Shown in pieces: positions 17,932-30,748 of a DNA stretch of 64,000 nt. Both the position numbers and the translations under genes were made by a program. The stretch comes from a virus (lineage: Duplodnaviria; Heunggongvirae; Uroviricota; Caudoviricetes): IMG/VR virus record IMGVR_UViG_3300025310_000004, positions 59,759 to 123,758 of that record, one strand, 5' to 3'. The notes under the pieces were generated by a model. The model saw only the letters and a program-made list of their open reading frames with translations, ran no database searches and had not been told where the DNA came from. Numbering within the stretch: the first letter of the stretch is position 1; every line of letters begins with the position of its first letter.

Positions 17932-18017
17932 GAGGGTGCGCCGGAGTTGGAGAGCCGGGTTTGGCTGTAAACCAGATGGCACTGCCTGAGGGGGTTCGAT
18001 TCCCTCCACCCTCACCA
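17932..18017 (+). tRNA. tRNA-Tyr(GTA), class II, CCA encoded
   Basis: Acceptor GAGGGTG/CACCCTC. Anticodon loop CTGTAAA. T-arm GGGGG-TTCGATT-CCCTC. Confidence 0.7.
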
Positions 18018-18077
18018 CTTAGGTCCGTGGCGGAAACACTGCTCCTAGGGCAGAGAAACCGCAGCGGACCTAAGCAT

Positions 18078-18164
18078 GGAAGGTCAACCAGACAGGCGTG
18101 CTGGGACTCCCTGCTAAGGAGTTCGCCCCTTCCGGGGGGTGGGGTTCGAGTCTTCGGCCTTCCG
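18078..18164 (+). tRNA. tRNA-Ser(GCT)
   Basis: Acceptor GGAAGGT/GCCTTCC. Anticodon loop CTGCTAA. Long variable arm. No CCA. Confidence 0.6.
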
Positions 18165-18247
18165 CCGGAACGAACGTACCGATCTAGTTTTCGAGTCAGG
18201 TCAGTGAGCCTGCTCCGTACTGGAATCGGTACGGTCGTGCCGGACAT

Positions 18248-18337
18248 GGAGAGTCAACCGGGCAGGCGTACCGGCGCTCGTTGGAAGCGAGTTGGCACCT
18301 TCACGGGTGTGGGGTTCGAGTCCTCGGCTCTCCGCCA
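18248..18337 (+). tRNA. tRNA-Ser(GGA), CCA encoded
   Basis: Acceptor GGAGAGT/GCTCTCC. Anticodon loop TTGGAAG. Confidence 0.6.
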
Positions 18338-18338
18338 A

Positions 18339-18426
18339 GGAGAGTGAACCGGACAGGCGTGCCGGGACCGTCTCGAAAGCGGATCGCCCCTCCGGGGGTG
18401 GGGTTCAAGTCCTCCGCTCTCCGCCA
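18339..18426 (+). tRNA. tRNA-Ser(CGA), CCA encoded
   Basis: Anticodon loop CTCGAAA. Same acceptor as Ser(GGA). Confidence 0.55.
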
Positions 18427-18427
18427 C

Positions 18428-18515
18428 GGAAGGTCAACCCGACAGGCGTGCGGGCACCGCCTTGAAAGCGGATGGGGGCATCAGCCCTGGGGTTCGAGTC
18501 CTCGGCCTTCCGCCA
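18428..18515 (+). tRNA. tRNA-Ser(TGA), CCA encoded
   Basis: Anticodon loop CTTGAAA. Acceptor GGAAGGT/GCCTTCC. Confidence 0.55.
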
Positions 18516-19008
18516 TCTCTCGCTTGGTGAGCCGAGCGACGTAGGAGTGGTCCATGCTCAACTCCTCAGCGATCGCCCGGTAGGTCCATCCCTGGGAGCG
18601 CAACTCCACCATGCGGCGCAAGTCGTCGGGCGTCGTCCGGCGATACCCGGAGAAGTTGTCTCCCGCCGCCTTGCGGGCTCGGTACTCCCGCATGTAGGTG
18701 GCCTTCGCCGATGTCGATGGCACCCTGGGGTTGGTGGGCCTCGGCTTGCGGGTCGCGACCTTCTTGACGGGAGGGCTTGCGGCCTGCTCTGTCTTGGTGG
18801 CCTTCTTCCTCCTGGCGCACACCGAACAAGCGCAGTCGTTGCGACCTCGACACCGATGATGTGAGCCGGAGAGGCAGTTGGTGCAGGTGATCACGCCGCC
18901 ACCATAGCAATCCACTGAGACATGTCGCACCCATGATGTATGGTGTGGACCCCGACGAAAGGAGGCCCCCATGATCGACCTGCACGCTCTATTCGCACCC
19001 GACGACAT
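18481..19008 (-). CDS. Zn-finger + C-terminal HTH (sigma-70 region-4/LuxR-like) regulator
   Basis: N-terminal Cys clusters, basic linker and WTYRAIAEELSMDHSYVARL. The 3' end overlaps tRNA-Ser on the opposite strand. Confidence 0.55.
   Translation of the reverse strand: MSSGANRACRSIMGASFRRGPHHTSWVRHVSVDCYGGGVITCTNCLSGSHHRCRGRNDCACSVCARRKKATKTEQAASPPVKKVATRKPRPTNPRVPSTSAKATYMREYRARKAAGDNFSGYRRTTPDDLRRMVELRSQGWTYRAIAEELSMDHSYVARLTKREMAEGRGLEPQG
18923..18944 (+). promoter_or_regulatory. conserved promoter motif TGTCGCACCC-N6-TATGGT (copy 3)
   Basis: This copy has a ~20-nt leader with GAAAGGAGG SD before the ATG at 18971. Confidence 0.45.
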
Positions 19009-19849
19009 CCAGGCCGCTCTGGACGCTGGGCACCTGCTCTCGCAGACCCACCCCGAGTTCGACCTGACGATCTACAACTACTCGTCGCTGTGCCAGATCA
19101 GCCGCGCCTGGACCCCGGTCACCTCGTCGTGCCGGGGCATGATCGTCGGTCCCGACGGCAAGGTGCTGGCTCGGCCGTTCCCGAAGCGCTACAATCATCA
19201 GATGGCGCGATTCTCAAGCACCCCCGAAGCCGCAGCGATCGATCACGAGTTCTTTGGGACCGGGAAGCCCGAGGCTGATTGGCTAGCCGGGCTTGTGGCG
19301 GCGGATGGCTGCATCAAGAACGAGAAGTTCTGGACCATCACACAGTCGGGGGATCACGGACTTGAGTTGATTGAAGCGGTCAGGGGCATGATCAACCATG
19401 GCCTGTCTGTTGGTCACTACAAGCCCAAGCGGGGACGAGTGGCTCATTCGATCTACGTTCCGTCGGCCCAGATGGTGGCAGACCTGGCGACCAACTACAG
19501 CATCACGCCCCGTAAGAGCCTCACGTTGACTCCCCCCACATTGGACGAAAGTCGGTTCTCTAACTTCCTGAGGGGCTACATCGACGGAGACGGCACCGTG
19601 GGGAGATACTCGGTGGGGCGCTGTCCGAACTACCTGATCGTATGCTTGGTCGGAACCGAGGACTTCATCGAATCGGTACACCACCTCAACGAGTCCGGGC
19701 GCGTGAGGGAACTCAAGAGGGCCAAGAATACTTGGGAGATCAGGTTCAACGGGAATCACGCCGTTGACTTCTGTCGTCGGACATATGCGGCTGGGAGCGA
19801 CCTTCCTGTCACGACCAAGGCGAAGAAGGCTTTGGGAGCAATCGGATGA
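18971..19849 (+). CDS. LAGLIDADG homing endonuclease fused to a duplicated RNA-ligase N-terminal segment
   Basis: The first ~100 aa parallel the N-terminus of ORF 19846 (HPEFDL.IYNY...CRG.IV). Then LAGLVAADGCI and LRGYIDGDGTV dodecapeptide motifs. Confidence 0.6.
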   Translation: MIDLHALFAPDDIQAALDAGHLLSQTHPEFDLTIYNYSSLCQISRAWTPVTSSCRGMIVGPDGKVLARPFPKRYNHQMARFSSTPEAAAIDHEFFGTGKPEADWLAGLVAADGCIKNEKFWTITQSGDHGLELIEAVRGMINHGLSVGHYKPKRGRVAHSIYVPSAQMVADLATNYSITPRKSLTLTPPTLDESRFSNFLRGYIDGDGTVGRYSVGRCPNYLIVCLVGTEDFIESVHHLNESGRVRELKRAKNTWEIRFNGNHAVDFCRRTYAAGSDLPVTTKAKKALGAIG

Positions 19850-20940
19850 ATCACATTGGCGAGTTCTTGGATTTGGCCTCCCTGGATGCCCACATCGAAG
19901 CGGGCAACATCTCTCGATCCCCACATCACGAATTCGACCTCTACGTCCTGAACTACACGAACCAGGCGCAGTTCTCTCGCTCGTGGGACAACGAGACGCT
20001 TAATTGCCGGGGCCTGATTGTTGACTCGGGCGGTCTGGTCGTTGCTCGAAGTTGGGCCAAGTTCTTCAACCACACCGAGACGGCCGTCCCCAAGTACGCC
20101 CTGACCACGCCGCCCATCGTCACCGAGAAGATGGATGGCTCGCTGGGGATCATCTACCAGCGTCCCGATGGGCGCTTCGCCGTCGCCACGCGTGGCTCGT
20201 TCGCGTCTGACCAGGCCGTCTGGGCAACGCAGTGGCTCACCGTCGAGATGCCGGGGTTCATCCAGCCTGCTGGTGTGACCACCCTGGTGGAGATCATCTA
20301 CCCCGAGAACCGGATCGTTGTGGACTACGGCGACCGTGCGGAGTTGGTGCTGCTGGGTGCCATCAACATCGCCACCGGAGCCGACATCCCCCTGTGGGAG
20401 ATCGACTGGTGGCCTGGTGCTCGCGCCGAGATGCACACCGGCATCGGCCACATGGACGACGTGTACCGCTTCGCGACGGGCAACGAGAAGGAGAACGATG
20501 AGGGCATCGTGGCGGTCTGGTACCGCCCCGGCGAGCCGTCGTTCCGGCTCAAGGTGAAGCACCCCGAGTACGTCCGGCTCCACCGGATCATCACGGGCAT
20601 CAATACCAAGCGCGTCTGGGAGGTGCTGGCTTCTGGCGGCGACTTCTACGACGTACTGGATCGTGTCCCCGACGAGTTCTACGGCTGGGTCAAGGGGGTC
20701 ATCACTGACCTCCGCAACCAGTACCAGGACATCGAGGATGCGGTCTATGAGCAGTTCCAGATCATCTGCCTCAACACCGACGACGGCGACCGCAAGGGCT
20801 TCGCCGCCAAGGCCAAGGCCACGCCGTGGCCGGGGTTGATGTTCGCCCTGCTCGATGGCAAGGACATCGAGCGTGCCATCTGGGACATGATCAAGCCCAA
20901 GGCCGAGAAGCCCTTCGCTGACCAGGGTGAGGACACCTGA
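19846..20940 (+). CDS. RNA ligase (Rnl-type nucleotidyltransferase)
   Basis: KMDGSLG motif I lysine. Sits beside a Pnkp gene. Confidence 0.7.
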   Translation: MNHIGEFLDLASLDAHIEAGNISRSPHHEFDLYVLNYTNQAQFSRSWDNETLNCRGLIVDSGGLVVARSWAKFFNHTETAVPKYALTTPPIVTEKMDGSLGIIYQRPDGRFAVATRGSFASDQAVWATQWLTVEMPGFIQPAGVTTLVEIIYPENRIVVDYGDRAELVLLGAINIATGADIPLWEIDWWPGARAEMHTGIGHMDDVYRFATGNEKENDEGIVAVWYRPGEPSFRLKVKHPEYVRLHRIITGINTKRVWEVLASGGDFYDVLDRVPDEFYGWVKGVITDLRNQYQDIEDAVYEQFQIICLNTDDGDRKGFAAKAKATPWPGLMFALLDGKDIERAIWDMIKPKAEKPFADQGEDT

Positions 20941-21006
20941 TCCTCCCCTGGTCAGTGTCGCAGTGGTGTGCTACTATCACGCCACGCCAAGAGAGAGGAG
21001 ACACCC

Positions 21007-21864
21007 ATGGCACGACTCATCATCACCCGAGGTCTACCGGCATCGGGCAAGTCCACCTGGGCGATCGAGCAGATCGCCAAGAACCCCGGTCGCACCATCC
21101 GTGTCAACCGGGATGACATCCGCGCCTCGATCCATGGCGGCGGCAAGTGGTCCAAGACCAAGGAGAAGGCGACCGTTGCAGTTCGCGACGCCATGATCCG
21201 TGCTGGTCTGGCGCAGGGCCTCACGGTCATCTGCGACGACACGAACCTGCCCCAGAAGGTCGTGGACGACCTGACCTTCCTGGCGCACGAGGCCAAGGCC
21301 GATGTGCTGGTGCAGGACTTCACCCACGTCTCGCCCGAGGAGTGCATCAAGCGTGACCTCGCCCGTGAGCGCACGGTGGGGGCCGAGGTCATCATGCGGT
21401 GGTACAACGACTTTCTCAAGCCGGACATGACCGTCACCGTGGATGAGTCCAAGCCCAAGTGCGTCATCGTGGACGTGGACGGCACCCTCGCCCTCCACGT
21501 CGCTCGCGGCCCCTTCGAGTACGACAAGTGCTCGACGGACGCTCCCAATCCCCGTGTGGTCGAGTTGATCAAGATGCTCCGCTCGACCTACGAGGTGGTG
21601 GTGTGCTCTGGCCGTGAGGGCACCGATCAGTGCCGCGCTGACACCATCGAGTGGCTGCAGCGTCACGGCATCACCTTCTCGGGGTTCTTCATGCGCCCCG
21701 AGGGTGACATGCGGAAGGACGCCATCATCAAGCGCGAGATTCTGGAACGGGACATCCTCCCGCGCTGGAACCCTGTGCTGGTGGTGGACGACCGCGATCA
21801 GGTCGTCCGCATGTGGCGCGATGCCGGGCTGACCTGCTGGCAGGTCGCCGACGGCAACTTCTGA
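21007..21864 (+). CDS. pnkp: polynucleotide kinase-phosphatase (T4 Pnkp-like)
   Basis: N-terminal P-loop GLPASGKST and C-terminal HAD motif VIVDVDGTLA. Confidence 0.8.
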   Translation: MARLIITRGLPASGKSTWAIEQIAKNPGRTIRVNRDDIRASIHGGGKWSKTKEKATVAVRDAMIRAGLAQGLTVICDDTNLPQKVVDDLTFLAHEAKADVLVQDFTHVSPEECIKRDLARERTVGAEVIMRWYNDFLKPDMTVTVDESKPKCVIVDVDGTLALHVARGPFEYDKCSTDAPNPRVVELIKMLRSTYEVVVCSGREGTDQCRADTIEWLQRHGITFSGFFMRPEGDMRKDAIIKREILERDILPRWNPVLVVDDRDQVVRMWRDAGLTCWQVADGNF

Positions 21865-21870
21865 GAGCCG

Positions 21871-21912
21871 CCCCCTGTTGTAGTCCTGTCGATCAGGTGC
21901 TACAACAGGGGG
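21871..21912 (+). promoter_or_regulatory. perfect 13-bp hairpin ending 2 nt before the WhiB-like ATG
   Basis: CCCCCTGTTGTAG-(16 nt)-CTACAACAGGGGG. The 3' arm contains the AGGGGG SD. Confidence 0.4.
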
Positions 21913-21914
21913 CC

Positions 21915-22145
21915 ATGCTCGAACCTCCCGCATGGCACGCCTTCGCCAACTGCCGGGGTTGTGACCCCGACCTGTTCTTCCCCCAACGAGGTGAATCGAC
22001 CAGGGAGGCCAAGGCGGTGTGTGCTGGGTGCGTGGTGCGCGAGGACTGCCTTGCCGACAGCGTTAGTGAGAAGTTCGGCATCTGGGGTGGCCTGAGCGAG
22101 CGTGAGCGACGCCGCATCCGCAGGCGGATCGCCCTCGCTGGATAA
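21915..22145 (+). CDS. WhiB-like (Wbl) protein
   Basis: CRGC, CAGCVVREDC and FGIWGG. Confidence 0.7.
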   Translation: MLEPPAWHAFANCRGCDPDLFFPQRGESTREAKAVCAGCVVREDCLADSVSEKFGIWGGLSERERRRIRRRIALAG

Positions 22146-22307: not shown

Positions 22308-22378
22308 CCCCCCGGAGACATAGGGTGCGTCACCTGCCTCTCAAGCAGGAGAATCGGGTTCGAGTCCCGGCGGGGGGA
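22308..22378 (+). tRNA. tRNA-Glu(CTC)
   Basis: Acceptor CCCCCCG/CGGGGGG. Anticodon loop CTCTCAA. Confidence 0.6.
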
Positions 22379-22381
22379 CTA

Positions 22382-22464
22382 GGGAGTGTGGTGGTCGCGT
22401 GAGCACCATCCCGAGTCAGGAACAACACCAGTGGATCGGTGCCTGACGAGTTGGAGCACTCCCT
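22382..22464 (+). ncRNA. atypical tRNA-like element (acceptor and D-stem pair, no canonical T-loop or anticodon loop)
   Basis: GGGAGTG...CACTCCC 7-bp acceptor, with internal helices GTCAGG/CCTGAC and CACC/GGTG. Confidence 0.3.
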
Positions 22465-22473
22465 CACAACCTA

Positions 22474-22549
22474 GGTCCGTTGGTGTAGTGGTCTTGCACG
22501 TTGGCTTGTCACGCCAAAGGAATTGGGGGTTCGATTCCCCTACGGACCG
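22474..22549 (+). tRNA. tRNA-Asp(GTC)
   Basis: Acceptor GGTCCGT/ACGGACC. Anticodon loop TTGTCAC. Confidence 0.7.
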
Positions 22550-22599
22550 CGTAACTCCCTGGTGAGCCTCTCACCGAAGCGCCCAGGGAGAGAGAACAA

Positions 22600-22671
22600 G
22601 CCCCAGGAGACGTATGGCGAGTCGCCGGACTTTCAATCCGGTTGTAGCGGGTTCGATTCCCGTCTGGGGTA
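22600..22671 (+). tRNA. tRNA-Glu(TTC)
   Basis: Anticodon stem CCGGA/TCCGG. Anticodon loop CTTTCAA. Confidence 0.6.
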
Positions 22672-22684
22672 CGCAACAACACAT

Positions 22685-22754
22685 AGGCCAGCCACAGGGT
22701 GGACGGGAGTCTCCAAAACTCCTAGGCAGGGTTCGAGTCCCTGTTGGCCTGCCA
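22685..22754 (+). tRNA. tRNA-Trp(CCA) with shortened D-arm, CCA encoded
   Basis: Anticodon stem GGAGT/ACTCC. Anticodon loop CTCCAAA. Only 14 nt between acceptor and anticodon stem. Confidence 0.5.
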
Positions 22755-22755
22755 A

Positions 22756-22832
22756 GCGCCCGTGGTCTAATGGATTAGGACACTTGACTACGAATCAAGA
22801 GGCTGCAGGTTCGAGTCCTGCCGGGCGCGCCA
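22756..22832 (+). tRNA. tRNA-Arg(ACG), CCA encoded
   Basis: Acceptor GCGCCCG/CGGGCGC. Anticodon loop CTACGAA. Confidence 0.75.
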
Positions 22833-22833
22833 A

Positions 22834-22906
22834 CCCGATGTAACTCAGCGGAGAGAGTGCCGTCTTGCGAAGGCGGAAGTCGCAGGTTCGACTCCTGCCA
22901 TCGGGG
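22834..22906 (+). tRNA. tRNA-Arg(GCG)
   Basis: Acceptor CCCGATG/CATCGGG. Anticodon loop TTGCGAA. Confidence 0.6.
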
Positions 22907-22922
22907 CTTGACAACAGAACTT

Positions 22923-22997
22923 CCCCCGTTGGTGAAACGGAGATCACGGCGTCGTCCGAAGGCGCAGTTCCAGGTTCGATTCCTGGGTGGGGGGCCA
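22923..22997 (+). tRNA. tRNA-Arg(CCG), CCA encoded
   Basis: D-stem GTGA/TCAC. Anticodon loop GTCCGAA. Confidence 0.55.
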
Positions 22998-23075
22998 CCG
23001 GGTAGGGGTGACGGCTTGGAAGCACGCCGGTCTGGGGGACCGGAGGACGCGGGTTCAAATCCCGCCTACCCGACC
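22998..23075 (+). tRNA. tRNA-Pro(GGG), CCA encoded
   Basis: Acceptor CGGGTAG/CTACCCG. Anticodon loop CTGGGGG. Confidence 0.6.
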
Positions 23076-23079
23076 AGAA

Positions 23080-23445
23080 CTACTTGCGACGAAGGTACTT
23101 CCAGACTCGTGAGTCCGAATCAAACAGGTGCTTGAGGAACCATGCGAAGAAGGTCACGACTCCACCAGCGATGATCGCCGTCCAGACCGGAGACTCTCCG
23201 GCGACGTACTGGATGTGCTCGGTGAGAGTGTCGCCGCCGCTGTCGTTGATGAGCGCTGGGACCTCGATGGCGAAGAAGCCGACGACGGCGCTCACCAGCC
23301 AGATCACCCAGGCGATCGTCCAGCCCTTGCGAGGCTGATCCCCCTCGGGAGTGGGCGGCTTCTTGGCAAGGAAGGCCATGCGCCCCACGAAGGCCGCTCC
23401 ACCCAGAAGGGCTACCGTGAGCAGGGTGGTGGCGACGACATCCAT
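23080..23445 (-). CDS. small membrane protein (3-4 TM)
   Basis: Hydrophobic ORF. The long N-terminus would overlap tRNA-Arg, so the shorter MDVV start is preferred. Confidence 0.45.
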   Translation of the reverse strand: MDVVATTLLTVALLGGAAFVGRMAFLAKKPPTPEGDQPRKGWTIAWVIWLVSAVVGFFAIEVPALINDSGGDTLTEHIQYVAGESPVWTAIIAGGVVTFFAWFLKHLFDSDSRVWKYLRRK

Positions 23446-23462
23446 AGCGCAAGCGTACTCTC

Positions 23463-23534
23463 GCCCTCGTGGTGGAAGGGATACCACGGCTCTCTCCTAA
23501 AGAGCAGGTCTGGGTTCGAGTCCCAGCGAGGGCG
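23463..23534 (+). tRNA. tRNA-Arg(CCT)
   Basis: Acceptor GCCCTCG/CGAGGGC. Anticodon loop CTCCTAA. Confidence 0.7.
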
Positions 23535-23540
23535 CTACAA

Positions 23541-23612
23541 GCCTCCGTCGTCCAACGGATAGGACACCCGCCCTCTAAGCGGTGGATGCGGGTTCGACTC
23601 CTGCCGGGGGCG
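23541..23612 (+). tRNA. tRNA-Arg(TCT)-like (C33, weak anticodon stem)
   Basis: Anticodon loop CCTCTAA. The alternative register CTCTAAG would give a CTA anticodon. Confidence 0.4.
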
Positions 23613-23614
23613 CT

Positions 23615-23635
23615 GTCGCACTCAAGTAGTACGAT
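23615..23635 (+). promoter_or_regulatory. promoter motif variant TGTCGCACTC...TAGTACGAT (copy 5)
   Basis: GTG start at 23643, seven nt after TACGAT. Confidence 0.4.
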
Positions 23636-23642
23636 CTGTTGC

Positions 23643-24407
23643 GTGATCGGTGAAGTTGAGTTCGAGGTACCAGACCTTGCCGAGCCAATCAGGGCTTGGA
23701 GATGTTGGCTGCTGGATGGCGACTTCGCTACGCCCATCTTGAAGTCGCCTCAGTCTGGTGTCATCTGGCCGCCAGTGAACGGGTGGCCGAGCGCAGTGAT
23801 TCGTGATCCTGAGCGCAACTACATCACCGCGACGTGTCGGAACGTGACGGGACCTTGTGGGTCATCGCCGTCGGCATCGCGAGATGGTCACCGTGGGGTC
23901 GGTTGTGGCATCTACGCCTACAAGACCGTCGAGGACCTGGCGTGGGATTGGCCTCTTGCTGGCTTGAGCCGCTTCTCCCCCATGAACCTGCTTCCCCCAC
24001 CGTGGGCGCAAGTGGTGTGGGGCCGTGTGCTGTTGTGGGGTCGCGTGTTCGAGCACGATCGTGGCTATCGGGCTGAGTTCGCTCGCATCGACTCGTTGGT
24101 GAGCGTGCCAAACCTTGGCTTCCTGTCGGACGACAAGTTGCTTGATGTCGCCAAGTTCTACGGGGTTCCCTACGAGGTGCTCACCACCGTGTCCAAGGCC
24201 GACCTCGAAGCGGCGGCGTTGGCTCGCGAGAACGAGATGGTGGAGCGGATCAATGCCGCCTACACCAGCCTCGGGGTAGCCCTGGACAACTTGGTTGATG
24301 TGATGACGCGTGGCATGACCCAGATGGTCAAGAGCGTGGCGGATGCCATCGAGCGCTTCAATGCCACCTACGGCAAGGGCGACGACAAGGAGGATGACGA
24401 TGGGTGA
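23643..24407 (+). CDS. hypothetical protein
   Basis: The ORF-track N-terminus overlaps tRNAs, so I trimmed it to the leaderless GTG after the promoter motif. Confidence 0.5.
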   Translation: MIGEVEFEVPDLAEPIRAWRCWLLDGDFATPILKSPQSGVIWPPVNGWPSAVIRDPERNYITATCRNVTGPCGSSPSASRDGHRGVGCGIYAYKTVEDLAWDWPLAGLSRFSPMNLLPPPWAQVVWGRVLLWGRVFEHDRGYRAEFARIDSLVSVPNLGFLSDDKLLDVAKFYGVPYEVLTTVSKADLEAAALARENEMVERINAAYTSLGVALDNLVDVMTRGMTQMVKSVADAIERFNATYGKGDDKEDDDG

Positions 24408-24534
24408 GATCGGAGAGCCGGTGCGTGAGGAGCCATGGCAGGTCCCCGCACCGCCAACGCATGAGCCGGTGAAGGAGCCTTCCCCTGAGCCGGTCGAGCA
24501 GCCCGAGCCTGAGCGCCCCCTGATTCCCGCCTGA
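24394..24534 (+). CDS. small Pro/Glu-rich hypothetical protein
   Basis: Internal ATG overlaps the upstream gene end. Confidence 0.3.
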   Translation: MTMGEIGEPVREEPWQVPAPPTHEPVKEPSPEPVEQPEPERPLIPA

Positions 24535-24538
24535 TCGA

Positions 24539-24560
24539 TGTCGCACCCGGCTGCTATGTT
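24539..24560 (+). promoter_or_regulatory. conserved promoter motif TGTCGCACCC-N6-TGcTATGTT (copy 6)
   Basis: ATG at 24567, six nt after the -10. Confidence 0.5.
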
Positions 24561-24566
24561 GCAGCC

Positions 24567-25256
24567 ATGAACGTGATCCTGCAAGGGGTTGTCGGCTCAA
24601 CCGCCTACGGCCTCGCTACCCCAACTTCCGACATCGACCGCCTCGGCGTGTTCCAAGCCCGCACCTCTGAGTTGCTGGGCCTGCATCCGCCCAAGGAGTC
24701 GCGCGTCTCGACCAACCCGGACGTGACCCACCACGAGTTGGGCAAGTTCGTGAAGTTGTGCCTGGCGAACAACCCCACGGTGATGGAGTTGCTCTGGCTT
24801 GACGAGTACGAGGTGATGACCCCCCTGGGTGAGCGCCTCATCGAGCATCGTCAGTCCTTCATGTCGCAGCGCATCCGCAAGACCTACGGTGGCTATGCCC
24901 GCCAGCAGTTCGAGCGGCTGATGCGTCGTGAGGAGGCCGAGCCGGGCGCTGGCTTCGCTGCCGACCTCAAGAAGCGCACCGAGAAGCACGCCCGCCACTG
25001 CTACCGCCTCATCCTGCAGGGCACCCATGCGCTTCGCACGGGTGAGTTGCGGGTGCGGCTGACTTCTGAGGAAGTTCAGATGTGCCGTGAGGCTGGGCTG
25101 ATGGCAGCCAATGACGTGGTGGAGTTCGGCAAGTCCGTCGAGATCGCCATGGCCGAGTTCGATGCCACCCCCACGGACCTCCCTGAGCATCCCGACGATG
25201 CGGACGCGAACTCGATGCTCGTGGTGGCTCGCACGCTCGATCTCACCGCTCCCTGA
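24567..25256 (+). CDS. Pol-beta-superfamily nucleotidyltransferase
   Basis: VVGSTAYGLATPTSDIDRLGVF GS..D.D motif. Confidence 0.65.
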   Translation: MNVILQGVVGSTAYGLATPTSDIDRLGVFQARTSELLGLHPPKESRVSTNPDVTHHELGKFVKLCLANNPTVMELLWLDEYEVMTPLGERLIEHRQSFMSQRIRKTYGGYARQQFERLMRREEAEPGAGFAADLKKRTEKHARHCYRLILQGTHALRTGELRVRLTSEEVQMCREAGLMAANDVVEFGKSVEIAMAEFDATPTDLPEHPDDADANSMLVVARTLDLTAP

Positions 25257-25273
25257 GAAACTCCTTGCGCGGG

Positions 25274-25295
25274 TGTCGCACCCAGGTGCTAAGGT
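25274..25295 (+). promoter_or_regulatory. conserved promoter motif TGTCGCACCC-N6-TGcTAAGGT (copy 7)
   Basis: Upstream of a 27-codon ORF (ATG ~25340, AGGAGG SD) and the tRNA cluster. Confidence 0.45.
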
Positions 25296-25439
25296 GATCG
25301 AAGAACGCATCGAGCGTTGAGCCACAGGAGGTGACCCAAATGCGAGCGTGTACGAGCATCACAACTGAGATGACCGGCGCTGGCATGGGGATTCCCGTAG
25401 GCTCCGGTCGATTTACCGGCTGACGCTGGTAGCCCAGGT

Positions 25440-25515
25440 CGCGGCTGGGTGAAACGGTTTCCACGCCTGGCTCATAACCAGGAGACATCCGGTTCGACTC
25501 CGGTAGCCGCCACCA
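25440..25515 (+). tRNA. tRNA-Met(CAT), initiator-like (C1·C72 mismatch, A73), CCA encoded
   Basis: Acceptor CGCGGCT/AGCCGCC. Anticodon stem CCTGG/CCAGG. Anticodon loop CTCATAA. Confidence 0.55.
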
Positions 25516-25648
25516 ACCTGCCAGACCGATGATGGGACGCCCACCGAATGACCCGGAGGCGAAACCCGGAGGTCTGACTCCCGACGAGATGGTGCAGGCC
25601 ACTTGTCGGACTCGGGTGAGGGGGCTTCGGCCCCCCACCCGACACCAT

Positions 25649-25722
25649 GGGGCAGCATGTACCAAGGCGGGCGACAGTGCTTTGCAAGCACCGTGTGGTG
25701 GGTTCGATTCCCACCTGCTCCA
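25649..25722 (+). tRNA. tRNA-Ala(TGC) with G3·U70
   Basis: Acceptor GGGGCAG/CTGCTCC. Anticodon loop TTTGCAA. T-arm GTGGG-TTCGATT-CCCAC. Confidence 0.6.
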
Positions 25723-25781
25723 CTGCAGCAGGGTCACCTGCGAGCAAGCGATCATTGACAACTGAATAGGTCTACACAGAT

Positions 25782-25849
25782 GGGGCACGCGCAGGGCGCA
25801 CGCGTCGCTGGCAGCGAAGCATCGCGGGGTTCGAGTCCCCGGTGCTCCA
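25782..25849 (+). pseudogene. tRNA-Ala-like pseudo-tRNA lacking an anticodon loop
   Basis: Acceptor GGGGCAC/GTGCTCC with G3·U70 and a canonical T-arm. Only 36 nt separate them: helix TCGCT/AGCGA with a 3-nt loop. Confidence 0.4.
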
Positions 25850-26029
25850 CTGTGGGGAAGGCCGACGGACAAGGCTTAGGCCCGTGAGAGCGTCAGTACG
25901 AACGTGGGAGGACTTCGGTCCGCTTCACCACGCGGAGGCGTTCAAGCCGGGGTGGGTAGCGAGTGGTCGAGTTCTTCCCCCACCAAGGTCGTGGTACGGC
26001 TCCGGGCAACCGGGCCGCCACGGCCTCGT

Positions 26030-26104
26030 GCGGCATAGGTGTTACGGGTTGCATACCTGCCTTCCAAGCAGAGGGACGGGGTTCGAGTCCCCGATGCCGC
26101 TCCA
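26030..26104 (+). tRNA. tRNA-Gly(TCC), CCA encoded
   Basis: Acceptor GCGGCAT/ATGCCGC. Anticodon loop CTTCCAA. Confidence 0.65.
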
Positions 26105-26217
26105 ACCCCATGGATCGGAGTCGCTACCCGCTCCATGCGTCGCCCTACTGCTGACGGGGGCGTGAAGGTGATACCCCACGAGAGTGTGCACGCTCGACCG
26201 GGGCACGTCGGCTCCAA

Positions 26218-26292
26218 GCGTTCAAGGTGTTCCTGGCTGCACGCCACCTTGCCATGGTGGAGGAGGGGGTTCGAGTCCCCCTGGACGCTCCA
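26218..26292 (+). tRNA. tRNA-Gly(GCC), CCA encoded
   Basis: Anticodon stem CCACC/GGTGG. Anticodon loop TTGCCAT. Confidence 0.7.
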
Positions 26293-26293
26293 A

Positions 26294-26369
26294 GGTTCTC
26301 AGGTGTCCGGTTGGATCGGCACGACGGTCTGAAAAGCCGTAGGGCTGGGTTCGAGTCCCAGGGGAACCA
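26294..26369 (+). tRNA. tRNA-Phe(GAA)
   Basis: Anticodon stem ACGGT/GCCGT. Anticodon loop CTGAAAA. Confidence 0.7.
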
Positions 26370-26374
26370 CACAA

Positions 26375-26414
26375 GGTGTTTCCACTGTTTCCTCTGGCGG
26401 AAACAGGAAACACC
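26375..26414 (+). other. long imperfect hairpin in tRNA spacer (GGTGTTTCC..GGAAACACC)
   Basis: About 16 bp of pairing around the loop tctggc. Confidence 0.4.
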
Positions 26415-26421
26415 GAGGACA

Positions 26422-26499
26422 TGCACGGGTAGCGCCAAGCGGCAAAGGCACCTCCTTCACACGGAGGGGATCGTGGGTTCGAGTCCCACCCCGTGTACC
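26422..26499 (+). tRNA. tRNA-Val(CAC), CCA encoded
   Basis: Anticodon stem CCTCC/GGAGG. Anticodon loop TTCACAC. Confidence 0.7.
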
Positions 26500-26500
26500 A

Positions 26501-26577
26501 AGCGCCGGTGCCCGAGCGGCCTAAGGGGGCGGCCTGCAAAGCCGTACTACGGGGGTTCAAATCCCCCCCGGCGCTCC
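26501..26577 (+). tRNA. tRNA-Cys(GCA), CCA encoded
   Basis: Acceptor GCGCCGG/CCGGCGC. Anticodon loop CTGCAAA. Confidence 0.65.
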
Positions 26578-26682
26578 ATCGCAAGAACTCCCACCCGAGC
26601 ACTCGGGGGTGGATCGAGTAACAAGGACCCATCGTCCCCCGCTTCGGCCGGATCGGTGCTAGGAACCCACTGAGTGCGTCAC

Positions 26683-26762
26683 CGGGGCGTATACCCTCCG
26701 TCTGATAAGCGGTAGAAAGGTTAGTTGGTGACACGGAGGTTCAAATCCTCCCGCCCCGACCA
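26683..26762 (+). tRNA. atypical tRNA (possible Ile-GAT loop CTGATAA; D-region too short, long extra region), CCA encoded
   Basis: Acceptor CGGGGCG/CGCCCCG and a canonical T-arm. The internal region does not fold canonically. Confidence 0.3.
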
Positions 26763-26763
26763 T

Positions 26764-26925
26764 GGTGAGAGACAGGAAGGTACGAGGGTTCGATTCCCTC
26801 ACGCTCCACTCGTGGGGCGTCCGGTGGACTCCGGTGAAGTCGGTTCGATTCCGACGCCCCGTAGGGGTGATGGTCACGAATAGGGTCGCTCCCGCCGAGG
26901 TGGTTCGACTCCACCACTCTCACCA
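26764..26925 (+). ncRNA. three tandem tRNA-like T-arm/acceptor minihelices enclosed by an 8-bp terminal helix, ending CCA
   Basis: T-arms at ~26784, 26851 and 26905, spaced 54-67 nt apart. 5' GGTGAGAG pairs with 3' CTCTCACC. Confidence 0.4.
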
Positions 26926-26931
26926 GATCAT

Positions 26932-27008
26932 GCACGGGTGGCCAAGTCTGGTAAGGCCCCTCCATGACACGGAGGAAACCGCGGGTTCAAATCCCGCCTC
27001 GTGCACCA
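26932..27008 (+). tRNA. tRNA-Val(GAC), CCA encoded
   Basis: Anticodon loop ATGACAC. T-arm GCGGG-TTCAAAT-CCCGC. Confidence 0.65.
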
Positions 27009-27009
27009 C

Positions 27010-27083
27010 TGCGCCGAAGTCGATTGGCGAGACAGCGGCCTCATAAGCCGTGGTAGAGGGTTCGATTCCCTCCGGCGCGACCA
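27010..27083 (+). tRNA. tRNA-Met/Ile2(CAT), CCA encoded
   Basis: Anticodon stem GCGGC/GCCGT. Anticodon loop CTCATAA. Confidence 0.6.
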
Positions 27084-27084
27084 C

Positions 27085-27159
27085 GCACCCAAGGTCTAGA
27101 CGGCGAGACGGCGGCATGGTAAGCCGCAGAGCGGGGTTCAAGTCCCCGTGGGTGCTCCA
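27085..27159 (+). tRNA. tRNA-Thr(GGT), CCA encoded
   Basis: Acceptor GCACCCA/TGGGTGC. Anticodon loop ATGGTAA. Confidence 0.7.
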
Positions 27160-27160
27160 C

Positions 27161-27235
27161 GCACTGGAAGCATGAATGGTGATGCGGCTGTCTCGTAAAC
27201 AGCAGAACCGGGTTCGATTCCCGGCCGGTGCTCCA
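27161..27235 (+). tRNA. tRNA-Thr(CGT), CCA encoded
   Basis: D-stem GCAT/ATGC. Anticodon loop CTCGTAA. Confidence 0.75.
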
Positions 27236-27236
27236 T

Positions 27237-27308
27237 GCCGTTGGCCCTGGTGGGCGCGCCGCCGTTGTACCGCGGTTACCTCGGGTTCGATCCCTGGCGA
27301 CGGCTCCA
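27237..27308 (+). tRNA. atypical tRNA: reduced D-arm and apparent 9-nt anticodon loop (CGTTGTACC), CCA encoded
   Basis: Acceptor GCCGTTG/CGACGGC. T-loop TTCGATC. Confidence 0.35.
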
Positions 27309-27360
27309 AGCACTAGACATCGTTAGACCTGTTCAGTTGTCTGCCCTCAAGGAGACAGAT

Positions 27361-27995
27361 CATGCGAGTTGAGATTCGCCCCGGTGAAGGGGGTGAGGAC
27401 GCCCAGCGCTTCGCCAAGGAGTGCCTTTGACGCGTTCTGCAAGGCGGCCCGCCGACGTGGGCTTGAGCCAGCAGTCAGCGAGTCCGCTCGCACCATGATC
27501 TTGGAGATCGCCGACATCTCCTTCCTTGAGCCCTTCGTCGGCACCCACCGCGTGCAGCGCATCCCCAAGGGGGAGCAGCGCCGTCACACCTCGACGGCCA
27601 CGGTTGCGATCGTCGGCCAGGTAGACAATGACGACTTCATCCCCGATGAGGAAATCGAGGAGCGGTTCGATCGCGGTGGCGGCAAGGGTGGCCAGCACCA
27701 GAACACCACCGACTCGGCGGTGACCCTCACCCACACCCCCACCGGGATCACGGTCCACATCGAGGGACGCAAGCAGTGGGGCAACCGCCAGGAAGCACGT
27801 CGGGTGCTATCCGAACGGGTAGCAGCCCATCGCCGAGCAGAGGCGTTGCGGATGTGCAACGACCAGCGGCGCGCCCAGATCAACCCGGAGCGCTCCGCCA
27901 AGTCGTTCACCCACAACACTCAGCGCAACGAGGTGGTGGACCACGACTCGGGTCGGTCGTGGCGGCTCACCGAGTTCCATAAGGGCAAGTTCTGA
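27361..27995 (+). CDS. prfH-like: class-I release-factor homologue lacking domain 1 (RF-H/PrfH-like); full length requires +1 frameshift at CUU UGA C
   Basis: Frame A gives MRVEIRPGEGGEDAQRFAKECL then TGA. The +1 frame continues DAFCKAARRRG...HRVQRIP...GGQHQNTTDSAVTLTHTPTGI. AAGGAG sits 3 nt upstream of CTT. Confidence 0.65.
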
Positions 27996-28017
27996 TGTCA
28001 CAGCCATCCGCTATGGT

Positions 28018-28827
28018 GTGCCGATGGCCAGGATGCTCGTACTCGGTGACACGCACGGCGACGTGAAGTTCTTGGAGCGCGCCTGCCGGATGGCCGTGAA
28101 GTCCGACTGCGACCGCATCGTCCAGGTCGGCGATTGGGGCTTCCTGTGGCCAGGAGCGAAGAACGATCGCCTCAAGGCGATCACCAACGTGTTGGCGCAG
28201 TTCGACCTCCACATGTTCTTCCTCGACGGCAACCATGAGTGGTATGGCCGCTTGGAGGAGATGGGGGCGACCCCCGATGCTCCCCACATGGTTGCGCTGT
28301 CGGATCGGGTCGCCTACTTGCCTCGTGGCTTCACTTGGGCTTGGGGCGGCGTGACCTTCATGTCGCTTGGCGGTGCCTTCTCCATCGACCAGGACCAGCG
28401 GACCAAGTTCATCGACTATTGGCCCCAGGAGACGATCCGTTACGCGGACGCTGACCGTGCCATTGCCGCTGGGCATGTGGACGTGATGTTCACCCACGAC
28501 GTTCCCGAGGGCGTTGTCAAGTTGGAGGCGATGCTGCATCGCGCCAGTGATCACTACCGGAGGTCCTACGGGGCCAAGTGGAACTACAAGTTGGACCCCG
28601 GCAGCCGGGCCAACCGCAAGACGTTGCGCGCCGTCGTTGACGAGGTGCAGCCCTTCTTGCTGATCCACGGCCACTACCACTGGCGCTACGACGACACCTT
28701 GGTGGGCGAGGACTACACCACCGAGGTGCGCGGCCTTGACTGCAACGGCTCGGGCGAGAGGGCCTGGGGAGTCGTGGATACGGCCGATGTCTTGAGATGG
28801 AGACTTGTCGTTGACGACGACGAATGA
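28018..28827 (+). CDS. calcineurin-like metallophosphoesterase
   Basis: GDTHGD, GDWG, DGNHE and GHYH motifs. Confidence 0.75.
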   Translation: MPMARMLVLGDTHGDVKFLERACRMAVKSDCDRIVQVGDWGFLWPGAKNDRLKAITNVLAQFDLHMFFLDGNHEWYGRLEEMGATPDAPHMVALSDRVAYLPRGFTWAWGGVTFMSLGGAFSIDQDQRTKFIDYWPQETIRYADADRAIAAGHVDVMFTHDVPEGVVKLEAMLHRASDHYRRSYGAKWNYKLDPGSRANRKTLRAVVDEVQPFLLIHGHYHWRYDDTLVGEDYTTEVRGLDCNGSGERAWGVVDTADVLRWRLVVDDDE

Positions 28828-28987
28828 GGACATCCAGCAGCACCCGCTCCACCGGGTGGTGGTGGGGGCGTTGAAGGACACCATCAACATGCACGGCCCC
28901 ATCACCCCCGAGTGGATCGGGTCTGCCGCCAAGCGGATCACGGCTGCCGTGGTGGCCGAGCAGAAGAAGTCTGCGGAAACCTCTTGA
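28805..28987 (+). CDS. small hypothetical protein
   Basis: 60-aa ORF with a TTG start overlapping the upstream gene. Confidence 0.3.
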   Translation: MSLTTTNEDIQQHPLHRVVVGALKDTINMHGPITPEWIGSAAKRITAAVVAEQKKSAETS

Positions 28988-28991
28988 TCGA

Positions 28992-29013
28992 GTGTCGCAC
29001 CCGTGTGCTAGGG
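28992..29013 (+). promoter_or_regulatory. conserved promoter motif TGTCGCACCCGTGTGCTAGGGT (copy 8)
   Basis: Identical to copy 4. ATG at 29021 of a 33-codon ORF, then the Leu tRNA cluster. Confidence 0.5.
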
Positions 29014-29158
29014 TCGTAGACATGTACCGATTGCTCCCCCTCCTACGGCCACTCAAGGCCAAGCCTGGGCATCAGCGCCCGCGCCATGCTGCGCGACCGC
29101 TGAATCCCCAGCAACAGGGGTAGAGCACCTTCTCTCCCCCTGTGGCCTGAGAAGGTCT

Positions 29159-29242
29159 TGCGGGGGTGGCGTAACTGGCAGCCGCGCCGGGTTTAGGTCC
29201 CGGTGGCCGAGAGGTCGTGAGGGTTCGAGTCCCTCCTCCCGC
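29159..29242 (+). tRNA. tRNA-Leu(TAG)
   Basis: Anticodon stem CCGGG/CCCGG. Anticodon loop TTTAGGT. 15-nt variable arm. Confidence 0.65.
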
Positions 29243-29246
29243 ACCG

Positions 29247-29333
29247 AGTGCCCGTGGCGGAACTGGTAGACGCGTTGTCCTCAGAAGGCAATGTCCGCAA
29301 GGGCGTGAGGGTTCGACTCCCTCCGGGCACACC
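29247..29333 (+). tRNA. tRNA-Leu(CAG), CCA encoded
   Basis: Acceptor GTGCCCG/CGGGCAC. Anticodon loop CTCAGAA. Confidence 0.7.
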
Positions 29334-29334
29334 A

Positions 29335-29420
29335 AGTCAGCATGGTGGAATGGTAGACACGCCGTCTTGAGGGGGCGGTGGCCGCAAGGTCGTGAGGGTT
29401 CGACTCCCTCTGCTGACACC
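29335..29420 (+). tRNA. tRNA-Leu(GAG), CCA encoded
   Basis: Acceptor GTCAGCA/TGCTGAC. Anticodon loop TTGAGGG. Confidence 0.7.
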
Positions 29421-29445
29421 AAACGCAAGAAACGCAACAAGATCA

Positions 29446-29527
29446 AGCCCGAGTGGCGGAACTGGCAGACGCGCTCGTCTCAAGAACGAGTGACCTAGGT
29501 CGTGTGGGTTCGACTCCCACCTCGGGC
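29446..29527 (+). tRNA. tRNA-Leu(CAA)
   Basis: Anticodon stem CTCGT/ACGAG. Anticodon loop CTCAAGA. Confidence 0.7.
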
Positions 29528-29560
29528 ACGCAAGGCTCTTTGACAACAGAAGATCACCGA

Positions 29561-29585
29561 TACAACGGGACGGGGTGACGGCTTG
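29561..29585 (+). repeat. duplicated 5' fragment of tRNA-Pro(CGG) (CAACGGGACGGGGTGACGGCTTGG)
   Basis: 24/25 identity with 30021-30045 at the start of the intact tRNA-Pro downstream of the HNH gene. Confidence 0.6.
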
Positions 29586-29600
29586 GATTAGACGGCAACG

Positions 29601-29606
29601 CTATAA
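29601..29606 (+). promoter_or_regulatory. perfect TATAAT -10 box 8 nt upstream of HNH ATG
   Basis: Seen directly. The surrounding sequence has lower GC. Confidence 0.4.
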
Positions 29607-29614
29607 TCTAATCC

Positions 29615-30037
29615 ATGACGATCACCCAGAAGTGCAAGCGCTGCGGAAAGCGGCGTGAACACGGACTCCGACGCAATGGCAGTGCTCAGGCGTACTGCCG
29701 TCAGTGTCAGAGGGAATACAGCAAGAGTCACTACGAAACCAACAAGGGTTCGTACAACGGCAGGAGGTTGAAGCACCAACGGCAGCGACGCCAAGACGGA
29801 TACAAGATCACGAACTCGGCCAAGGATCGCCCTTGCGTCGATTGCGGGGTCAAGTACCCGACCTACGTCATGCAGTTCGATCATCGGGACCCGACGACCA
29901 AGAACTTCACGATTGCCACCCATGTTCGCAATGGTGGCTCCTTGAAGGCGCTGATCGCCGAGATCGAGAAGTGTGACGTGGTTTGTGCGAATTGTCATGC
30001 CGAAAGGACGCATCAACAACGCAACGGGACGGGGTGA
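29615..30037 (+). CDS. HNH homing endonuclease
   Basis: MQFDHRDP and CANCHAERTH HNH motif. The gene has lower GC than its flanks. Confidence 0.8.
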   Translation: MTITQKCKRCGKRREHGLRRNGSAQAYCRQCQREYSKSHYETNKGSYNGRRLKHQRQRRQDGYKITNSAKDRPCVDCGVKYPTYVMQFDHRDPTTKNFTIATHVRNGGSLKALIAEIEKCDVVCANCHAERTHQQRNGTG

Positions 30038-30102
30038 CGGTTTGGTTGCACGCCGCGTTCGGGACGCGGAGGTCGCGGGTTCAAATCCCGCCGTCCCGAC
30101 CA
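30025..30102 (+). tRNA. tRNA-Pro(CGG), CCA encoded
   Basis: Acceptor CGGGACG/CGTCCCG. Anticodon loop TTCGGGA. The 5' end overlaps the HNH stop. Confidence 0.65.
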
Positions 30103-30103
30103 T

Positions 30104-30176
30104 CGGAAGGTGGTGACAAGCGCACAGCGGCCGTTGGGGCCGCAGGACCGGGGGTAGCGTCCCGGCTTTCCGACCA
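30104..30176 (+). pseudogene. cloverleaf tRNA-like with non-canonical loops (T-loop GGTAGCGT, anticodon loop CGTTGGG), CCA encoded
   Basis: Acceptor CGGAAGG/CTTTCCG. All four helices are present. Confidence 0.35.
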
Positions 30177-30177
30177 A

Positions 30178-30249
30178 CGGGTAGGTGCCGGATGGCAAGG
30201 CACTCGGTTTGGGGCCGAGACTAAGGAGGTTCGATTCCTCTCTACCCGA
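30178..30249 (+). tRNA. tRNA-Pro(TGG)
   Basis: Anticodon stem CTCGG/CCGAG. Anticodon loop TTTGGGG. Confidence 0.65.
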
Positions 30250-30254
30250 CTTGA

Positions 30255-30323
30255 TCGATGGTGGCCGCAATTGGTAGCGGTAGCCCGACGGGGTTTGTGC
30301 GGGTTCGAGTCCCGTCCATCGAT
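30255..30323 (+). pseudogene. tRNA-like with canonical acceptor/T-arm but collapsed anticodon arm
   Basis: Acceptor TCGATGG/CCATCGA and T-arm GCGGG-TTCGAGT-CCCGT. Internal CCCGACGGG. Confidence 0.3.
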
Positions 30324-30330
30324 CAACCAT

Positions 30331-30406
30331 TCCGGGGAAGGTTGATGGCATCCTGCCCGCACTCTGAATGCGGACCACGTTGGTTCGATTCCAACCCCCG
30401 GAGCCA
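30331..30406 (+). tRNA. tRNA-Gln(CTG), CCA encoded
   Basis: Anticodon stem CCGCA/TGCGG. Anticodon loop CTCTGAA. Confidence 0.7.
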
Positions 30407-30407
30407 T

Positions 30408-30483
30408 GGTGACCGGAGCCGGATGGAGAGGCGCTTGGTTGTGACCCAAGCAGCAGGGGGTTCGATTCCCCTCGGTCACCCCA
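30408..30483 (+). tRNA. tRNA-His(GTG) with encoded G-1 and C73, CCA encoded
   Basis: G-1 + GTGACCG/CGGTCAC. Anticodon loop TTGTGAC. Confidence 0.7.
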
Positions 30484-30487
30484 TCGA

Positions 30488-30562
30488 TCGGGAGTGGTGT
30501 AACGGCAGCACGCGAGGCTTTGAACCTCGTAGGTGAGGGTTCGAGTCCTTCCTCCCGAGCCA
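30488..30562 (+). tRNA. tRNA-Gln(TTG), CCA encoded
   Basis: Acceptor TCGGGAG/CTCCCGA. Anticodon loop CTTTGAA. Confidence 0.7.
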
Positions 30563-30744: not shown

Positions 30745-30748
30745 TCGT

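Follow-up and report, generated by a model that had tools for sequence, protein, structure and literature searches.

A LAGLIDADG homing endonuclease gene inserted in a phage Rnl1-type RNA ligase gene, probably together with a replacement 5' gene end

We analysed a stretch of 64,000 nucleotides (nt) of a tailed phage (Caudoviricetes; IMG/VR record IMGVR_UViG_3300025310_000004, positions 59,759 to 123,758), here called the window and numbered from its first letter. In it, a homing endonuclease gene (HEG) of the LAGLIDADG type is joined to a copy of the 5' end of an RNA ligase gene and lies immediately upstream of a complete RNA ligase gene. Both open reading frames (ORFs) are present where the initial annotation of this DNA, made from the sequence without database searches, had placed them, and they share an ATGA overlap. 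In what follows, L numbers denote the loci or contigs compared and P numbers the proteins compared. The features of the locus are:

18961-18965, plus strand: Shine-Dalgarno sequence GGAGG, 5 nt before the ATG of ORF-A, which belonged to the original ligase gene
18971-19849, plus strand: ORF-A, 292 amino acids (aa), an in-frame fusion of ligase remnant, junction and HEG
18971-19186, plus strand: remnant, codons 1-72 of the resident ligase, ending ...VLARPFPK, which today form an N-terminal leader on the HEG ORF
19187-20061, plus strand: inserted cassette, 875 nt, not in three related HEG-free loci
19187-19201, plus strand: left junction, 15 nt CGCTACAATCATCAG, encoding RYNHQ, with the remnant kept in frame with the HEG
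19202-19849, plus strand: LAGLIDADG HEG proper, 215 aa from its native Met (aa 78 of ORF-A), with motifs at 19283-19309 and 19568-19594
19846-20061, plus strand: foreign ligase 5' segment, a new ATG and codons 1-72, ending ...VVARSWAK
19846-20940, plus strand: RNA ligase, 364 aa, T4 Rnl1-type, chimeric yet full-length
20062-20940, plus strand: resident ligase body, codons 73-364, including EKMDG (K95)

The downstream ORF can be assigned to the T4 Rnl1-type RNA ligases on its RNA_lig_T4_1 domain (PF09511, E 5.7e-14) and its KxDG motif (EKMDG, with the motif I lysine K95), and it also matches PHROG 562 (E 1.9e-63). BLASTP aligns the N-termini of ORF-A and the ligase without gaps over aa 13-76 of both (27/64 identical, 42%, E 7e-15), and with the ligase as a tblastn query the 64-kb window shows no second copy other than that in ORF-A (E 2e-12). 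The ligase-like N-terminus noted in the initial annotation is therefore real, and the formal alignment that had been named as its critical check is significant; its length is 72-76 aa rather than ~100, and it does not run up to the KMDG motif as had been thought but stops at ...ARPFPK, with 19-23 codons still to go to the catalytic lysine. Aligned as DNA, a comparison also proposed at that stage, the two heads are ~50% identical (proportion of synonymous differences, pS, 0.66; synonymous substitutions per site, dS, ~1.6), indicative of old homology and not of recent duplication.

The remainder of ORF-A is, as initially described, a two-motif LAGLIDADG enzyme (LAGLVAADG at aa 105-113 and LRGYIDGDG at aa 200-208). 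It scores 26.1 bits against Pfam LAGLIDADG_3 (PF14528; cut-off 22.5) and matches PHROG 4645, an endonuclease family (E 1.6e-21), and a profile search against the PDB returned 2dch (E 1.5e-9). An alignment of 17 family members shows that all invariant core residues of the family are retained and that the conserved acidic residues D112 (of LAGLVAADG) and D207 (of LRGYIDGDG) fall in columns invariant across all 17, with M78 of ORF-A at the N-terminal end of the block common to the 16 homologues. The AlphaFold2 model (pLDDT 91.4, pTM 0.89) consists of two alpha-beta-beta-alpha-beta-beta-alpha halves, and its top Foldseek matches are all LAGLIDADG enzymes, the best being I-Tsp061I (PDB 2dch, E 9e-10). 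Sequence and model agree on a predicted two-motif monomeric LAGLIDADG homing endonuclease with an intact core. It shares with I-Tsp061I, I-AniI and I-SceI the ~200-aa pseudo-dimeric fold and two LAGLIDADG helices each ending in a conserved Asp, but is only ~20% identical to them or less; its closest homologues are free-standing genes of 254-277 aa (39-49% identity).

Read directly, the sequence upstream of the HEG's own ATG (19202) has no ribosome-binding site comparable to the GGAGG in front of ORF-A, which suggests that the endonuclease is probably made as the 292-aa fusion by way of the old ligase signals. A TACAAT lies in the left junction, 6 nt before the HEG ATG, and a role for it as a promoter is speculative; a sigma-70 consensus scan of 18400-21100 found no promoter. 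The ligase starts in the ATGA overlap with the HEG stop, with GGGAG ~8 nt upstream, an arrangement from which we would predict translational coupling behind the HEG.

A search with ORF-A recovered intact 364-aa metagenomic ligases with N-termini nearly the same as the first 72 residues of ORF-A. One of them is P0009, whose gene is free of the HEG, and the contig of this allele, L002, defines the insertion. In blastn comparisons, positions 68-925 of L002 correspond to window 18335-19186 and positions 923-2659 to window 20059-21795. The breakpoints at 19186 and 20059 are the same in L002/L003 and in L174, and L004 has the gene order of the window with the insertion not present. Each of the HEG-free alleles has a single ligase gene, in which the left flank stops at window 19186. 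The cassette sits directly after ligase codon 72, inside the motif ARPFPK/FFNH (here and below a slash marks the break), where the uninterrupted site of L002 reads GTGTTGGCTCGGCCCTTCCCGAAG/TTCTTCAACCACAGCGAGACAGCC; since AAG is found at both cassette ends, its edges are ambiguous by 3 nt. Its components are the 15-nt junction, the HEG and 72 codons of a foreign ligase 5' end that begin at a start codon of their own. The element is accordingly polymorphic for presence and absence at one defined site in otherwise collinear genomes, with three HEG-free relatives, which marks it as mobile.

Comparison with the empty allele also separates resident from foreign sequence. The remnant fused to the HEG is identical to P0009 in 71/72 aa and to L002 in 92.6% of its DNA, and it differs from the empty allele by one amino acid change in 72 against 14.5 synonymous changes (dS 0.34; nonsynonymous substitutions per site, dN, 0.009; their ratio, omega, 0.03), a pattern consistent with the rather recent invasion of a functional gene. 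The ligase body is likewise close to P0009 and L002 (~95% aa and 92.5% DNA identity, omega 0.09). The head of the present ligase is only ~42% identical at the amino acid level to P0009 (26/64) and to the remnant, and its dS of ~1.6 to the remnant, compared with ~0.3 between the window flanks and the empty allele, indicates that this second head was imported and did not arise in place. It retains every strongly conserved N-terminal residue except for P68S and F69W, which are next to the breakpoint. By these comparisons the HEG-fused fragment is identified as the displaced head of the resident ligase, and the present ligase as a foreign head on the resident body; as the foreign head is in frame with resident codon 73, a full-length chimeric ligase results without splicing. 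The initial annotation, in proposing a free-standing HEG that had captured a piece of its target gene, was right on the type of HEG and on its fusion to a second ligase N-terminus beside an intact ligase; the piece in question is not a captured one but the 5' end of the resident gene itself.

A second example of the layout, remnant, HEG and chimeric ligase, occurs independently on L093, an unrelated contig of 50% GC. Its remnant is an 83-aa ORF in which a ligase head ending ...ARPFKKF/ is followed by unrelated residues and a stop; then come the promoter-like TGTTATAAT and a ribosome-binding site, a 271-aa endonuclease and a full ligase. The head of that ligase (...VALPMKRFFNY) is 38% identical to P0238, compared with 74% for the remnant and 66.5% for the ligase body. 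No empty allele of L093 closer than 57-67% identity was found, and P0238 and P0222 were taken as lineage references. The same HEG family can also leave a ligase gene split: in L180 (CAZRNW010000042.1, a contig of a Flavobacteriaceae metagenome-assembled genome, 31% GC), at 1622-4645, a family member divides an Rnl1-type ligase between its FWN and KxDG motifs. The N-terminal part is a 450-aa ORF (kinase and metallophosphatase) that ends in the ligase head ...AKPFCKFWNLSELINVKDIDNL and a stop, and after the HEG (2968-3753) an ORF starting just before FDKTDGS contains the rest of the ligase.

We consider it likely, on this evidence, that a free-standing LAGLIDADG HEG invaded an Rnl1-type ligase gene and brought along a replacement 5' segment, by which the resident head was displaced. 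The donor would have been a phage with the arrangement HEG-ligase, as in L005 or L171, and the donor enzyme would have cut a P0009-type ligase gene at the motif. The right break end may then have invaded the donor ligase at the conserved FFN region and been copied leftwards through the donor head and the HEG, while the left end, for lack of upstream homology, would have been joined without homology at a point ~15 nt ahead of the HEG start. For T4, illegitimate repair of this one-sided type, at microhomology, is documented in intron homing and as a way in which new sites are reached (PMC2988022). Immunity of the carrier to its own enzyme would come from the altered motif ARSWAK in the imported head and from the half-site broken up at the left junction, and with resident-type flanks on both sides the whole cassette could now home into P0009-type ligase genes in the manner of an intron.

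The element is neither an intein, a group I intron nor an in-situ duplication. As to the group I intron, 18800-20300 gave no Rfam match at E values up to 1, and the part of the insert outside the HEG encodes a ligase-like head. The alternative that survives best, which we hold to be possible though less probable, is that the combination of HEG and foreign head was built earlier in another phage and arrived by two-sided homing into an intact P0009-type ligase gene, with ligase codons 1-72 and 73 onwards as homology arms. Both flanks are of resident type up to the junctions, and the remnant is fresh (omega 0.03, 1/72 aa), as it would be if every homing event turned a working gene into a new remnant; the chimera is also found in the contig of P0342, and L093 is an independent example of the layout. 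However, no other contig was found with the cassette between P0009-type arms, and the missing C-terminal tail of the HEG (see below) casts doubt on its current activity.

A tandem duplication of the ligase 5' end, with divergence of one copy and later insertion of an unrelated HEG between them, would account for two head-to-tail copies of one gene segment with a mobile gene in between, and divergence in place has been considered for some mitochondrial hybrids (PMC3630166). We judge it very improbable: the copies are near synonymous saturation whereas the flanks have a dS of ~0.3 to the empty allele, the empty alleles carry a single head that matches the upstream copy, and the downstream copy is conserved but for two breakpoint residues and so has not drifted freely. 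There is similarly little chance that reads of two phages with different ligase alleles were falsely joined during assembly. The contig is metagenomic and the two heads are from different ligase lineages, as a chimeric join would give, but such a join would have had to hit a codon boundary precisely with an entire HEG, keep the left side in frame and create the ATGA overlap on the right side. Moreover, the exact ORF-A protein is on record in public assemblies (P0001), and both it and the ligase are recorded in JGI, Logan and ENA assemblies from two contigs; a second phage contig encodes the same chimeric ligase (P0342) with 17 evenly spread amino acid differences (4/72 in the head and 13/292 in the body), and the same layout occurs in L093. 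Least credible is the other suggestion of the initial annotation, that ORF-A is a decayed ligase copy left over from a LAGLIDADG intein at KxDG after loss of the splicing domain and C-extein, for although LAGLIDADG domains are typical of inteins, intein endonucleases are among the fold matches and inteins do occur right after KxDG in relatives of this ligase (P0122, ...EKMDG/CCDGDTLIQTE...; P0157, ...EKLDG/CMPYNTT...), this is not the situation in the window, where ORF-A has no Hint or intein Pfam match, the ~28 aa from the end of ligase similarity to the first LAGLIDADG motif are too few to hold blocks A and B, the break falls at codon 72 rather than at K95, ORF-A has its own stop (19847-19849) and the ligase its own ATG, the closest HEG relatives are free-standing and start at the M78-equivalent position, the empty alleles have one ligase gene with a clean insertion, and no C-extein fragment is found.

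Returning to an invasion in which the HEG supplied the new ligase head, the site of insertion falls in a motif that is well conserved among Rnl1-type ligases. Across 213 of them, the positions of ARPFxKFFN are conserved at 91% (A), 92% (R), 80% (P), 85% (F), 99% (K), 97% (F), 78% (F) and 96% (N). Two or more of these eight positions deviate in 10/11 ligases with a HEG upstream against 46/212 in the background (Fisher p 4.6e-6, in a test that takes the ligases as independent and ignores shared ancestry), and the consensus itself is found in 0/11 HEG-linked ligases against 106/212. The empty site is restored at neither junction of the window. The left half-site has 8/12 nt changed at the right junction; the left junction, in 5 of its first 12 nt, departs from the right half-site TTCTTCAACCAC of the empty site, against a flank divergence of ~7%. 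Breakpoint clustering and the motif deviations in carrier alleles point to a putative cleavage site at, or directly beside, ...CGGCCNTTCCCNAAG/TTCTTCAACCAC... in ligase genes that lack the HEG, and the simplest reading of the junctions is that carrier alleles would be resistant to their own enzyme. The motif deviation is supportive, though not conclusive, of this target and immunity.

Besides the shared ancestry set aside in that test, several points weigh against the history proposed here. Deviant motifs are also found in P0080, which has no LAGLIDADG gene in its available upstream sequence, and in P0073, which has none in the ~225 nt available upstream, so that motif deviation is not exclusive to HEG carriers. 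We infer both the target site and the activity of the HEG from sequence. Of the 16 aligned homologues, 15 have a C-terminal helix-turn-helix (HTH) tail of ~55 aa; the window HEG is without this tail and has no other DNA-binding extension, suggesting that it may be weakened or dead. The extra C-terminal, and sometimes N-terminal, HTH of its close homologues recalls WhiA (3hyi, among the fold matches), and it is this HTH that the window copy has lost. A donor was not found, as a full HMMER scan of 1.84 billion representatives gave no relative of the foreign head above ~55% identity, and in cultured phages tblastn gave at most 47%. Tested with a head profile, only the window and L093 have two ligase heads among 12 loci with HEG and ligase, indicating that the route that leaves a remnant is a minority outcome. 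Finally, all sequences compared are from metagenome assemblies.

The association of this HEG family with Rnl1-type ligases extends well beyond the window. Relatives of the HEG adjoin such ligases at no fewer than 12 unrelated metagenomic or genomic loci, lying directly upstream of the ligase gene in L005, L087, L090, L093, L094, L097, L098, L171, L172, L173 and L181, and between the ligase gene and that of polynucleotide kinase-phosphatase (PNKP) in L006. A stop/start overlap of HEG and ligase is frequent at the upstream loci, and the GC content of these loci, taken over all but L181, ranges from 32 to 66%. More distant relatives (36% identity or less), examined at 80 IMG/VR loci, are almost never beside a ligase; the ligase association is thus specific to the closer clade.

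Several further observations concern the same ligases and their neighbours. In an Actinoplanes genome (L178; Actinoplanes sp. NPDC023936, NZ_JBEZZR010000009.1, positions 2962-5337), a 40%-identical HEG relative lies directly upstream of a PNKP gene, followed by a shorter KMDG-containing ligase of a different type (216 aa); in this bacterial genome the locus is possibly a prophage RNA-repair module. Truncated ligase heads were seen in L168 (JAVQIO010020040.1, 538-828), where the head ends just past ...KFFN(Y/M) and an unrelated converging gene follows, and at the contig end of L167 (2049-2279), where it reads ...KFFNM-GTARR before a stop; P0215 reads ...AKFF/IFLL..., and an internal deletion in P0129 joins ARPF to sequence just before KMDG. 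Taken together, these four suggest that the site after KFF(N) may be a recurrent breakpoint. In the Streptomyces phages Comrade and SparkleGoddess an annotated HNH endonuclease gene is found directly upstream of the RNA ligase gene, so the 5' flank of phage Rnl1 ligases seems to attract more than one homing endonuclease family. A match of Streptomyces phage Jada into the remnant was rejected as spurious, since it crosses a stop codon, and the LAGLIDADG gene of Jada is not beside an Rnl1-type ligase. P0071, a giant repeat protein with a predicted 6,524 aa, contains 15 stretches that match the 72-aa ligase head (E 3e-32).

HEGs in essential or useful genes usually persist within an intron or intein that splices itself out or, as an option in phages, through division of the gene into two subunits. 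The window, together with the independent L093, adds a third route in phages, in which the endonuclease brings a spare gene head. The principle behind it, endonuclease-mediated formation of hybrid genes, is not new: organelles show it, with the opposite gene end. A mobile-ORF (mORF) hybrid of this kind was reportedly described by Paquin et al. in 1994 for atp6 of Allomyces macrogynus. Others are found in fungal mitochondria, in atp6, atp9, cox2 and nad3 of Glomus (PMC3630166), and partial duplications of mitochondrial atp6 and cob with mORFs are also known (PMC6279837, PMC7487136). There, an endonuclease ORF and a foreign C-terminal gene end are inserted and the native C-terminal remnant stays downstream (PMC3630166). 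Common to these hybrids and the window are an endonuclease placed in a conserved gene, a co-inserted foreign copy of the displaced end that is joined in frame, and a native remnant nearly identical to close relatives beside a strongly diverged inserted copy. In the fungal hybrids, however, it is the 3' end that has been exchanged, with a downstream remnant, whereas in the window the 5' end is replaced and the remnant is upstream and fused to the HEG, and the new head must supply its own start codon and ribosome-binding site. All described cases are mitochondrial; ours is in a double-stranded DNA phage and its target is an RNA-repair ligase.

The intronless homing of the T4 Seg and Mob endonucleases resembles the window in that the HEG is outside an intron or intein and beside the gene inferred as its target, with flanking markers co-transferred and a variant target in the carrier allele, which in the window is putative (PMC2988022). 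Seg and Mob enzymes are of the GIY-YIG or HNH type, unlike the LAGLIDADG enzyme of the window, and they have not been reported to bring a replacement gene end (PMC2988022), as the window HEG does. The same T4 review lists HEG insertions inside genes only as splits (mobE/nrdA, mobA/gene 60, seg/gene 43), with no duplication mentioned (PMC2988022), and a survey of nucleases at phage recombination boundaries likewise describes no replacement ends. HEG-split genes such as nrdA-mobE of phage Aeh1 and T4 gene 39/60 have their counterpart in the L180 ligase, split by the same HEG family, but differ from the window ligase, which the imported head has made whole again. LAGLIDADG inteins in nucleotidyltransferase active sites share the endonuclease fold and interrupt KxDG in relatives of the ligase; the window differs from them in the insertion site, in having no protein-splicing domain and in that its ORFs are separated by a stop codon. 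The tie between a LAGLIDADG family and phage RNA-repair ligases, in hosts whose GC content spans 31% to 67%, is previously undescribed; we found no literature report linking LAGLIDADG genes to phage RNA ligases, in a search whose coverage was incomplete, such that a prior description is possible.

On a practical level, the predicted target sequence of this HEG family is concrete enough to be tested and is of use in the search for new meganucleases, and automated gene calling will wrongly label such remnants, either as fusion proteins or as small hypothetical ORFs. A broader proposition, which we put forward as speculation and think unlikely, is that carriage of a replacement end gives phage homing endonucleases a general, splicing-free entry to the best-conserved regions of useful genes and that this HEG family is a specialised parasite, active at present, of the Rnl1/PNKP module. 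Were it true, each invasion would swap the N-terminal 72 residues of the ligase and the HEG would drive diversification of a counter-defence enzyme, and the fused remnant might serve expression of the HEG from ligase signals or interaction with the ligase. The T-even homing endonuclease SegB, in a tRNA region, is reported in a 2026 paper (PMC13096335) to promote amplification of anti-defence loci, and by analogy a similar side-effect is conceivable for the window HEG, which is also in a tRNA/RNA-repair region.

The surroundings of the insertion provide its genomic context. With a GC content of 59-67%, 37 tRNA genes, a dNMP kinase and PNKP beside the RNA ligase, the window looks like part of a large actinobacterial phage. 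Near-identity DNA matches to window 18400-21900 were absent among 50,697 phage records, indicating a phage without a cultured close relative. The RNA-repair partner of the ligase lies outside the insertion:

20968-21864, plus strand: PNKP, Pfam HAD_PNKP (E 6.9e-49) and AAA_33, syntenic in L002, L004 and L174

The ligase/PNKP module is flanked by several tight tRNA arrays at 17932-18515 and 22308-31159, which include four tRNA-Lys, five tRNA-Arg and three tRNA-Ser genes, and the tRNA-Ser region at 18075-18515 contains internally repeated DNA. A minus-strand ORF at 18481-19008 (175 aa, with HTH_23 near its C-terminus) overlaps the start of ORF-A; with a counterpart of just 70 aa in the HEG-free L002, the real gene probably occupies the 3' third of this ORF, the rest being an over-extension. 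Just 3' of PNKP, a small WhiB-like ORF (CxxC...C...GIWGG) occupies 21813-22145 on the plus strand, and L004 has a Pfam Whib gene at the same relative position.

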